NCBI GenBank assembly: GCA_030647205.1
Contig: JAUSJO010000002.1
Location: 305,771-369,770 of the forward strand
From: a bacterium
Lineage (GTDB): Bacteria > Patescibacteriota > CPR2 > UBA1875 > JAJYID01
Direction of reading: 5' to 3'
Length of the DNA stretch: 64,000 nt
Shown piece after piece: positions 44,580 through 45,374 of the stretch. How positions within the stretch are numbered: the first letter of the stretch is position 1; every line of letters begins with the position of its first letter. The position numbers and the translations under genes were made by a program. The notes beneath the pieces were generated by a model, which was not told the origin of the DNA, did no database searches, and saw only the letters and a program-made list of their open reading frames with translations.

Positions 44580-44806
44580 AGGGAGATATCCCATTCAATT
44601 GGGACTACTTCCAGGTTGAGTCCCGCACATATTTTGCATTATGTTTAAGCAGTTAAAGATAGTGTGGAATATGTGCGGGGTTAGTGATATAAGTTTTTCT
44701 CTACTTTCCGGGCTTCAAGGTCATAACAAAAAGATTGATTTTCAAGGTAAAAACGGTTAAAATATTGAAGTTAAAACCGTTTTTATTTGTTTTAATGTAT
44801 TGATTG

Positions 44807-44883
44807 GGGCGACTAGCTCAGGTGGTTAGAGCGCAGCTCTGATAAAGCTGAGGTCCGTGGTTCGAGTCCACGGTCGCCCACCA
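44807..44883 (+). tRNA. tRNA-Ile (anticodon GAT) in 16S downstream spacer
   Basis: Acceptor GGGCGAC/GTCGCCC, anticodon loop CTGATAA, T-loop TTCGAGT, encoded CCA. Confidence 0.9.
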
Positions 44884-44899
44884 AAGAAAGGAGGTAGGA

Positions 44900-45118
44900 A
44901 TGAGTTTCATCCTAAGGCTTTTTATTAGTCTTGTTGCCGGAGGAATAGGCTTGGTTTTGTTAGTAAAAACCAGAAGAGTTGTCCATCAAGTTGGGTATAT
45001 AAACTGGGCAGAACAGCATCTTGGAGGAGGCGGCACTTATATACTAATAAAGTTTCTTGGCTTACTGGTTATGGTGATAGCAGTTTTTTTCTTGCTAGGT
45101 GTCATAAAAATTTTCTAG
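44900..45118 (+). CDS. small two-TM membrane protein (72 aa) encoded between tRNA-Ile and tRNA-Ala
   Basis: A strong SD (AAAGGAGGT) lies 5 nt ahead of the ATG. Two hydrophobic helices are present. Confidence 0.4.
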   Translation: MSFILRLFISLVAGGIGLVLLVKTRRVVHQVGYINWAEQHLGGGGTYILIKFLGLLVMVIAVFFLLGVIKIF

Positions 45119-45180
45119 TTTTTCGACTGTCATAGTTTATTGTTAGCAATTCGTATTGTATATTAAGTTTAATATGTCAT

Positions 45181-45256
45181 GGGCCCTTAGCTCAGTTGGT
45201 AGAGCGCCTCGCTTGCACCGAGGAGGTCAGGAGTTCGAACCCCCTAGGGTCCACCA
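45181..45256 (+). tRNA. tRNA-Ala (anticodon TGC)
   Basis: Acceptor GGGCCCT with the G3:U70 Ala identity pair, anticodon loop CTTGCAC, encoded CCA. There is one A·C mismatch in the T-stem as I read it. Confidence 0.85.
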
Positions 45257-45374
45257 AGAAAAATCTCATCATTTTTGATGGGTTTTTTCTTTTCCCAAAA
45301 CTAAATAGTGTCTAATGTCTTTAAAAGTCAATTTTTATATATATCCAGAATAAGATTGGACGCCCTGAGATTAA

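Follow-up and report, generated by a model that had tools for sequence, protein, structure and literature searches.

Does a real protein gene lie between the two spacer tRNA genes of a bacterial ribosomal RNA (rRNA) locus, and how could its mRNA be made there? The question is raised by a 64,000-nt stretch of contig JAUSJO010000002.1 (positions 305,771 to 369,770 of the forward strand; GenBank assembly GCA_030647205.1) from a bacterium of the Patescibacteriota, lineage CPR2, which as a whole is called the window below. In it, a 16S rRNA gene is followed by tRNA-Ile(GAU), an open reading frame (ORF) of 72 amino acids (aa) with two helices, tRNA-Ala(UGC), a terminator-like hairpin and a P-type ATPase gene. 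This order, together with a near-perfect Shine-Dalgarno (SD) sequence before the ORF and the hairpin with its T-run before the ATPase gene, had been given in a preliminary description of the locus, and all the elements were located as claimed by ORF calling, ARAGORN, Rfam and Pfam. We consider it likely that the locus combines the 16S half of a split rRNA operon with a genuine family gene whose mRNA would be made within a tRNA precursor.

Conservation and coding potential of the 72-aa ORF

A search of 5.8 billion proteins returned an identical NCBI entry for the window ORF, on a contig of 428,588 bp, and relatives with 88%, 68% and 44% identity. The 88% relative (locus L003) and the 68% relative (L001) are on contigs from other samples and occupy the same position, behind the 3' end of a 16S rRNA gene and a tRNA-Ile(GAU) that is 100% identical to that of the window; in L001 and L002, tRNA-Ala(UGC) also lies downstream of the orthologue. 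The preliminary description had held that failure to find the ORF in the spacers of relatives would speak against it, and this is not what the comparison of the spacers showed.

Between the window and L003, 11, 2 and 25 substitutions fall on codon positions 1, 2 and 3, respectively, and the ratio of nonsynonymous to synonymous substitution rates (dN/dS) is 0.08. Against L001 the synonymous sites are saturated and the proportion of nonsynonymous differences (pN) is 0.21; frame and length are kept at 68% aa identity, and nucleotide identity is 62% in the ORF versus 39-42% in the flanking spacers. The SD sequence AAAGGAGGT forms a duplex of -17.6 kcal/mol with the tail of the window's own 16S rRNA (3' end ...GAUCACCUCCUUUCU), which is the strongest in the window; the 41 long ORFs used for comparison reach -15.7 kcal/mol at best, with a median of -6.2 kcal/mol.

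Searching 1.84 billion cluster representatives with a profile yielded a family of 377 of them at E <= 1e-3, with lengths of 61-145 aa among the 150 matches listed. The window ORF, whose family-profile score is 82.5 bits, is the only copy of this small gene in the 64 kb. A second profile search gave 414 proteins in 90% clusters, all of them 'hypothetical' and without a Pfam domain; the few named ones carry the organism names Candidatus Uhrbacteria, Parcubacteria and Patescibacteria group. Within this analysis it was such named relatives, and no classifier, that placed the window among the Patescibacteria. Among 74 family members, Pfam and NCBIfam gave no match beyond scattered chance ones. In the family alignment, a loop with the motif G..WAE..LG.GG(T/S)...K connects two hydrophobic helices; in the window protein this motif takes the form G..WAE.HLGGGGT...K. 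The AlphaFold2 model of that protein (pLDDT 93.4) has helices at residues 3-22, 24-31, 35-41 and 45-66, the two short ones lying in the loop. Since the loop carries the basic residues K23, R25, R26 and K51, the positive-inside rule predicts that it is cytoplasmic, which is probably the case. The tryptic peptide VVHQVGYINWAEQHLGGGGTYILIK is diagnostic for the protein.

On these comparisons we conclude that the ORF is a genuine, strongly conserved gene, and the preliminary reading of it as protein-coding, with two helices, is well supported. It is likely to be a housekeeping-type gene, and the proteins related to it probably constitute a phylum-wide, unannotated family of small two-helix membrane proteins. 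Clear family members are also carried by L007, L009, L011 and L012, which are GTDB representative metagenome-assembled genomes (MAGs) titled 'uncultured Gammaproteobacteria bacterium', and in L012 the member is sandwiched between tRNA-Val and tRNA-Ala. Either the family extends outside the Patescibacteria or these record titles are placeholders.

The secG-leuU operon of Escherichia coli, described below, and the tRNA-Leu(GAG) neighbours of some family members raised the hypothesis that the protein is SecG. We rejected it as homology: none of the 74 members matched PF03840 at E <= 0.05, the PDB sequence-profile search contained no SecG chain, and Foldseek gave no significant match. The only hit of that profile search was a chance-level one (DppC, E = 2.7), and Foldseek against the PDB found no solved structure at E <= 0.001, the best being a small V-ATPase membrane subunit (chain 9cfc_T, E = 2.8). 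Our best guess is that the protein is a small subunit or an assembly partner of a membrane complex.

A 16S rRNA gene without 23S and 5S

Several features of a canonical rRNA (rrn) operon are present: the 16S gene lies within a leader/trailer helix, and tRNA-Ile(GAU) and then tRNA-Ala(UGC) follow on the same strand (Table 1). In contrast to such an operon, the locus has no 23S and 5S genes within about 1.5 kb, and the terminator-like hairpin and the ATPase gene are found instead. Rfam gave no match to either gene at gathering score in the 64 kb, which include 18.7 kb after tRNA-Ala. The 16S gene looked anomalous at one point, its identity to that of L003 being seemingly low (84.5% over the last 470 nt), and this anomaly was rejected because one variable region accounts for it.

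Brewer et al. (bioRxiv 10.1101/705046) treat rRNA genes as unlinked when 16S and 23S are more than 1500 bp apart, and name the Patescibacteria among the clades with such genes. The window agrees with this, as no 23S gene lies within 1500 bp of its 16S gene. It differs in that the preprint, as far as it was searched, only classifies linkage and leaves the region after 16S undescribed, whereas here both spacer tRNAs have stayed with 16S and enclose a protein gene. The earlier suggestion that 16S and 23S are unlinked is supported both by the Rfam result and by the contigs of the relatives. We regard the locus as probably the 16S half of a split rRNA operon of the Patescibacteria, which belong to the Candidate Phyla Radiation (CPR), with 23S and 5S located elsewhere.

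In Borrelia, the rRNA genes are arranged as rrs-tRNA-Ala ... ORFs ... tRNA-Ile-rrl. There too the rRNA operon is disrupted and its two spacer tRNAs have protein genes between them, but the tRNA order is reversed and the spacer is several kb long, with enzyme genes of ordinary size and then 23S; the window has no 23S and a single mini-gene, tightly packed. A further relevant case is that of the protein-coding insertions in CPR rRNA genes, which are protein genes at rRNA loci of the same phylum (Brown et al. 2015, cited in 10.1101/705046). These ORFs reportedly lie inside 16S or 23S, in insertions resembling introns, whereas the ORF described here lies between tRNAs and the 16S gene is uninterrupted. 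A homing-endonuclease type of ORF would be expected inside an rRNA gene and with a nuclease domain; the window ORF has no Pfam domain of any kind.

Table 1. Coordinates of the features of the locus, in window positions (all on the + strand)
Feature	Position	Strand	Evidence and remarks
Promoter-like TTGACT-17-TAATAT	42878..42906	+	Consensus scan, 9/12 matches; directly after the stop of the upstream gene
Leader strand of the 16S-enclosing helix	43021..43058	+	Cofold: 34 intermolecular pairs; unique best partner in 2 kb upstream
16S rRNA, complete	43123..44577	+	Rfam RF00177, 1510 bits, model positions 1-1533; 1455 nt, uninterrupted
Long local hairpin	44621..44680	+	About 26 pairs, -36 kcal/mol, z = -9 versus shuffles
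Trailer strand of the 16S-enclosing helix	44684..44722	+	Core TTTTCTCTACTTTCCGG.CTTCAAGG invariant in the three relatives
Promoter-like TTGATT-17-TAAAAT	44735..44763	+	Consensus scan; overlaps the 5' arm of the next hairpin
A/U-flanked hairpin and U-rich run	44745..44795 (hairpin 44745-44788)	+	-13.2 kcal/mol; in centroid fold
tRNA-Ile(GAU), CCA encoded	44807..44883	+	ARAGORN and Rfam
Shine-Dalgarno AAAGGAGGT	44887..44895	+	5 nt 5' of the ATG, within the 16-nt gap after tRNA-Ile
72-aa membrane-protein gene	ATG 44900..TAG 45118	+	ORF call; NCBI entry: hypothetical protein Q7S53_02140 [bacterium]
tRNA-Ala(UGC), CCA encoded	45181..45256	+	ARAGORN and Rfam; 62 nt 3' of the ORF stop
Terminator-like hairpin CTCATCA-TTTT-TGATGGG and TTTTTTCTTTT	45265..45292 (hairpin 45265-45282)	+	-13.8 kcal/mol; terminator scan
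P-type ATPase ORF	45375..47852	+	Pfam E1-E2_ATPase, Cation_ATPase_C, Cation_ATPase_N

The highest-scoring promoter-like site of the region, TGGACG-18-TATAAT (10/12 matches; feature span 45357-45396), ends at 45386, which is past the start listed for the ATPase ORF (45375). The next in-frame ATG of the ATPase, at 45394, lacks an SD sequence and follows the -10 box by about 7 nt, and therefore the ATPase mRNA may be leaderless from 45394. An ORF of 2381 aa lies on the + strand further upstream, at 21581-28726.

Genomic context across the family

JGI metagenomes and a set holding one genome for each species were scanned, giving 62 further loci, in which the gene was located with the family hidden Markov model and ARAGORN was re-run. 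For the counts below, the loci were collapsed to 46 distinct proteins (<90% identity); as they had been found via the protein motif (WAE[QA]HLG and similar), they sample part of the family.

An upstream tRNA gene on the same strand was found within 800 nt in 24 of the 46 loci, and ARAGORN identified these tRNAs as 16 Val-UAC, 4 Ile-GAU, 2 Leu-GAG, 1 Ala-GGC and 1 Ile-UAU. A downstream tRNA gene lies within the same distance in 18 loci and is Ala-UGC in all 18; at least one flanking tRNA, upstream or downstream, is present in 29 loci. The packing is often tight. The upstream gap is 6-25 nt in nine loci and as small as 6-8 nt in L027 and L062, and in L027 the ATG follows tRNA-Val after 8 nt without an SD sequence. 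The downstream gap ranges from -10 to 62 nt in eleven loci, and the stop codon of the small gene is inside the tRNA-Ala gene in L059 and L017. In L059/L060 (2855-3250), the upstream tRNA is the one called Ile-UAU, an unusual bacterial isoacceptor, and the stop, TAG, falls in the first bases of tRNA-Ala.

In none of the 20 loci scanned with Rfam was an rRNA gene found; linkage to rRNA is confined to the window, L001/L002/L013, L003, L006 and L008. The arrangement had been described as unusual, which is true for bacteria in general and not for this protein family, most members of which stand between tRNA genes, away from any rRNA gene. In a rough neighbour-joining tree, which is weak as the proteins are short, the rRNA-linked, Ile-flanked members group together among the Val...Ala-flanked ones. 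We think it likely from these patterns that the ancestral home of the family was a tRNA cluster with tRNA-Val or tRNA-Ile upstream and tRNA-Ala(UGC) downstream.

A gene for a class-I S-adenosylmethionine (SAM) methyltransferase follows the small gene instead of tRNA-Ala in 20 of the 46 loci, often with tRNA-Val still upstream. In this clade the genes run as SAM methyltransferase, a membrane protein of about 135 aa, UPF0102/YraN, NusA and YidC, and the nearness of YidC is a weak hint at membrane-protein biogenesis. In the Uhrbacteria-type loci L068 (10001-14481) and L069 (6001-9307), the small gene heads this order of genes as a conserved same-strand string, which may include a HIT gene between UPF0102/YraN and NusA. 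None of the neighbours seen elsewhere (the methyltransferase, the 135-aa membrane protein, UPF0102, the histidine-rich protein and the GIY-YIG protein, the last two of which are described below) was found in the 64 kb of the window.

The other two rRNA-linked arrangements differ from that of the window. L006 has the order 16S, 122-aa ORF, tRNA-Ile, 168-aa membrane protein, small gene, GIY-YIG gene and tRNA-Ala. L008, from a Saccharibacteria MAG, has the small gene between tRNA-Ala and the start of a 23S gene 3.7 kb further on. The broken rRNA layout of L008 (CAYSHH010000001.1, 987-8165) consists of a Clp-type ATPase gene, tRNA-Ile, tRNA-Ala, about 6.7 kb of protein genes including the homologue, and the 23S start, and no 16S was found in the 986 nt upstream of it. 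Directly before the small gene, L006 (3380-3886) and L008 (3467-3955) encode a homologous histidine-rich membrane protein of 160-170 aa (27% identity, E = 1e-18; no significant Pfam match), which is absent from the window.

A GIY-YIG nuclease gene of about 90 aa occurs in L006 (within 4224-4554), L015, L023, L033 and others. In L006 the initial 26 nt of tRNA-Ala (4528-4554) are repeated almost exactly ahead of it (4224-4250); it looks like a mobile element whose insertion at the tRNA-Ala gene duplicates the 5' half of that gene. Pieces resembling the anticodon and T-arm of tRNA-Ile (e.g. AAGGAAGAGGTCACTG) recur just after the intact tRNA-Ile (L006:3180-3300), which suggests past insertion events at that gene as well.

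Alternative explanations of the locus

The ORF has only 72 codons, lies in a region that is normally non-coding and matches neither Pfam nor NCBIfam, as would a frame that is open by chance in an A/T-rich spacer, or one whose conservation stems from RNA structure. Such an origin has a negligible probability in our judgement and is already refuted by the dN/dS value and the 377-member family: there is an excess of third-position substitutions, frame and length hold where synonymous sites are saturated, the relatives have a common motif, the helical-hairpin model is confident, and no SD duplex in the window is stronger. A different kind of doubt concerns the contig itself. Because rRNA operons are classic break points of metagenome assemblies, the lack of 23S and 5S might be an artefact, namely a chimeric join or a collapsed repeat after tRNA-Ala. 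The independent contigs L001 and L002, from two different samples, likewise run from tRNA-Ala through a terminator-like hairpin into protein genes, and genes for a BipA-like protein (90% aa identity) and EamA (74%) lie downstream in both genomes, with different genes between them. The unit is closed by a terminator-like hairpin, L006 also lacks 23S within the 3.6 kb after tRNA-Ala, and unlinked rRNA genes are documented for the phylum (10.1101/705046). An artefact is thus very improbable, the missing 23S is with high probability real, and the chimera that the preliminary description had considered is not borne out.

A further alternative to a resident housekeeping gene is an ORF carried as cargo by a mobile element with tRNA genes as its targets. 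tRNA genes are insertion hot spots, a GIY-YIG nuclease gene stands between the small gene and tRNA-Ala in seven distinct loci, and in L006 that gene is flanked by the duplicated tRNA-Ala half, with tRNA-Ile fragments after tRNA-Ile. Against this, the small gene in the window has no repeats or duplicated tRNA halves and is present once in 64 kb; the similarity groups of the protein follow the type of context, purifying selection is strong, and in other clades the gene belongs to a stable housekeeping string (methyltransferase, UPF0102, NusA, YidC). We consider a mobile origin highly unlikely, though not quite as improbable as an assembly artefact.

Structures around the 16S gene and the extent of its transcript

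The site TTGACT-17-TAATAT, ahead of 16S, is a candidate promoter of the 16S unit. The proposed layout would start with this promoter and continue through a leader of about 210 nt, 16S within its processing helix and a spacer to tRNA-Ile. The 16S-enclosing helix was assessed by a focused 51-nt duplex test and by cofolding, and its duplex energy is -41.0 kcal/mol compared with -14.5 +/- 3.2 in 1000 shuffles (z = -8.3). When the whole leader was paired with the whole trailer, 53 of 300 shuffles were equally good, these sequences being too long for that test to inform. We conclude from the predicted pairing that the helix is an RNase III-type processing stem of 16S.

That role had been given in the preliminary description to an 11-bp inverted repeat (44622-44677). 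The repeat exists, as the outer part of the long local hairpin, and it does not enclose 16S. In L003 the hairpin has the same position with another inner-stem sequence, and in L001 it is shorter. Further downstream, both hexamers of the site TTGATT-17-TAAAAT are unchanged in L003 and L001, and the A/U-flanked hairpin that overlaps it is kept in both with one G-U change. The site is a candidate internal promoter for tRNA-Ile, the ORF and tRNA-Ala, and the hairpin may be terminator-like or a processing hairpin. A hairpin with a T-run after tRNA-Ala is also present in L001, in the same place and with unrelated sequence; in the window it may serve as the terminator-like end of the tRNA-ORF-tRNA unit.

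The mini-protein had been proposed to be co-transcribed with rRNA. The conserved hairpin with its U-run and the promoter-like site, which separate 16S from tRNA-Ile, make this less than certain; what the sequence forces is co-transcription of the ORF with the tRNAs. Two arrangements could follow. rRNA polymerases might read through the A/U-flanked hairpin, giving a single long precursor, or 16S might be a transcription unit of its own that ends at this hairpin, with tRNA-Ile, the ORF and tRNA-Ala forming a separate operon from the internal promoter, whose transcripts would begin within the hairpin, without its 5' arm, and hence escape termination. We give the second arrangement a little less than an even chance; it competes only with the rRNA co-transcript and is compatible with mRNA ends made by tRNA processing. 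The hairpin is as stable as the one after tRNA-Ala, L003 and L001 retain both it and the two hexamers of the promoter-like site, most tRNA-ORF-tRNA modules of the family have no rRNA nearby and so need a promoter of their own, and in L006 the 16S gene is followed by a strong hairpin with a T-run and a promoter-like TTGACT well before tRNA-Ile. However, the promoter match is weak (9/12, with 10 such sites found in 3.5 kb versus 5.9 expected by chance), and the hairpin, with no more than 3 G-C pairs and an interior of 16 nt, was not called by the terminator scan. Hairpin and promoter overlap, moreover, so that their conservation cannot tell which of them is selected, and the rRNA transcription complexes of model bacteria read through such terminators.

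The sequence GGGACCTTGAAAATCG lies in the leader strand of the helix around 16S (43021-43036). It resembles the boxA antiterminator consensus in the rRNA spacers of cyanobacteria (GAACCTTGAAAA), and a functional boxA here would make read-through of the A/U-flanked hairpin more likely.

Proposed expression of the small gene by tRNA processing

No promoter-like or terminator-like site was detected in the 16 nt between tRNA-Ile and the ORF (44884-44899), which hold the SD sequence, or in the 62 nt between the ORF and tRNA-Ala (45119-45180). The ORF would therefore be transcribed only within a precursor that includes tRNA-Ile. Its transcript almost certainly continues into tRNA-Ala and the hairpin after it, as the gene order suggests, and the mRNA is probably cut out of the tRNA precursor. 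RNase P cleavage at the 5' end of tRNA-Ala (45180/45181) would set the 3' end of the mRNA, and the 3' maturation of tRNA-Ile would free, shorten or nearly define its 5' end. Such tRNA punctuation would tie the output of the protein to stable-RNA synthesis.

Mixed tRNA-mRNA operons are known, among them thrU-tyrU-glyT-thrT-tufB and tyrT-tpr. The window has the same properties, namely genes on the same strand, no room or signal between them and a single terminator after the last tRNA. The closest parallel is secG-leuU of E. coli, where the mRNA of a two-helix membrane protein is co-transcribed with a tRNA and split from it by RNase P, a cleavage that controls the stability of the mRNA, which then decays quickly (PMC2241853). 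Common to both cases, as proposed for the window from its sequence, are a transcript that carries a small two-helix membrane-protein gene together with a tRNA and a single terminator behind the last tRNA; tRNA-Leu(GAG), the leuU species, is moreover a frequent neighbour in the family. Unlike secG, the window gene has a tRNA on either side, 16 nt away upstream and 62 nt downstream, and lies behind 16S; its product is not SecG, and the tRNA partners are Ile/Val and Ala, not Leu.

The tRNA punctuation model of mitochondria reportedly goes back to Ojala, Montoya and Attardi in 1981. There, as would be the case in the window, an mRNA is delimited by tRNAs on both sides and its ends come from tRNA 5' and 3' processing (the model is reviewed in PMC3790967); family members with 6-8 nt and no SD sequence between tRNA and ATG are near-leaderless in a similar way. 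In contrast to mitochondria, the window is part of a bacterial chromosome in which a single gene and not the whole genome would be punctuated, an SD sequence is kept in the 16-nt gap, and the processing is inferred.

Several points weigh against this account. Anatomy, coding constraint, the family and its conserved context can be read from the sequences, whereas everything said at the RNA level, like topology and function, is inferred from DNA. About 17 of the 46 loci have no tRNA within 800 nt, the SAM-methyltransferase gene following instead, and therefore the link to tRNA is not obligatory for the family; since synteny is inherited, the context counts are not independent events. Both tRNAs encode CCA, and in model bacteria 3' maturation then usually needs a downstream endonucleolytic cut. 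In the window such a cut would lie within the 16-nt leader or close to it, so that it is unclear how tRNA-Ile maturation and an intact mRNA could coexist. What is said about the function of the protein, which draws on fold and neighbours, is weak. A stronger form of the account, in which an essential-type two-helix protein is expressed throughout the Patescibacteria only as a passenger of tRNA precursors (in this clade also of rRNA precursors) and RNase P and tRNA 3' processing make the mRNA ends, as a bacterial equivalent of punctuation in mitochondria, is one that we offer tentatively and consider rather unlikely.

Significance

Split rRNA operons in the CPR and mixed tRNA-mRNA operons in E. 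coli are each already known. Our literature search found no prior account of ORFs between CPR spacer tRNAs or of bacterial tRNA punctuation. Three things appear to be new: an unannotated family of small membrane proteins across the Patescibacteria, a gene tightly sandwiched between tRNAs across lineages with only about 30-40% protein identity, and the presence of this small gene, in one clade, inside the remnant of an rRNA operon. For annotators, the family provides a new family model, together with a caution that the '16S-23S spacer' regions of CPR bacteria can contain real genes.

If the mRNA is carved by tRNA processing, the locus would provide tRNA punctuation with a natural example in bacteria. 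Were the protein expressed only as a precursor passenger, a membrane component would be coupled stoichiometrically to stable-RNA synthesis and growth rate, and the constant partner tRNA-Ala(UGC) would reflect a functional dependence, for example as a stabiliser of the mRNA 3' end or as a timer. The few cultivable Saccharibacteria, to which the MAG with the homologue in L008 is assigned, make the gene a candidate for study. If true, the proposed mode of expression would show how very small genomes can link the supply of a membrane component to the output of ribosomes and tRNAs with no regulation dedicated to it.

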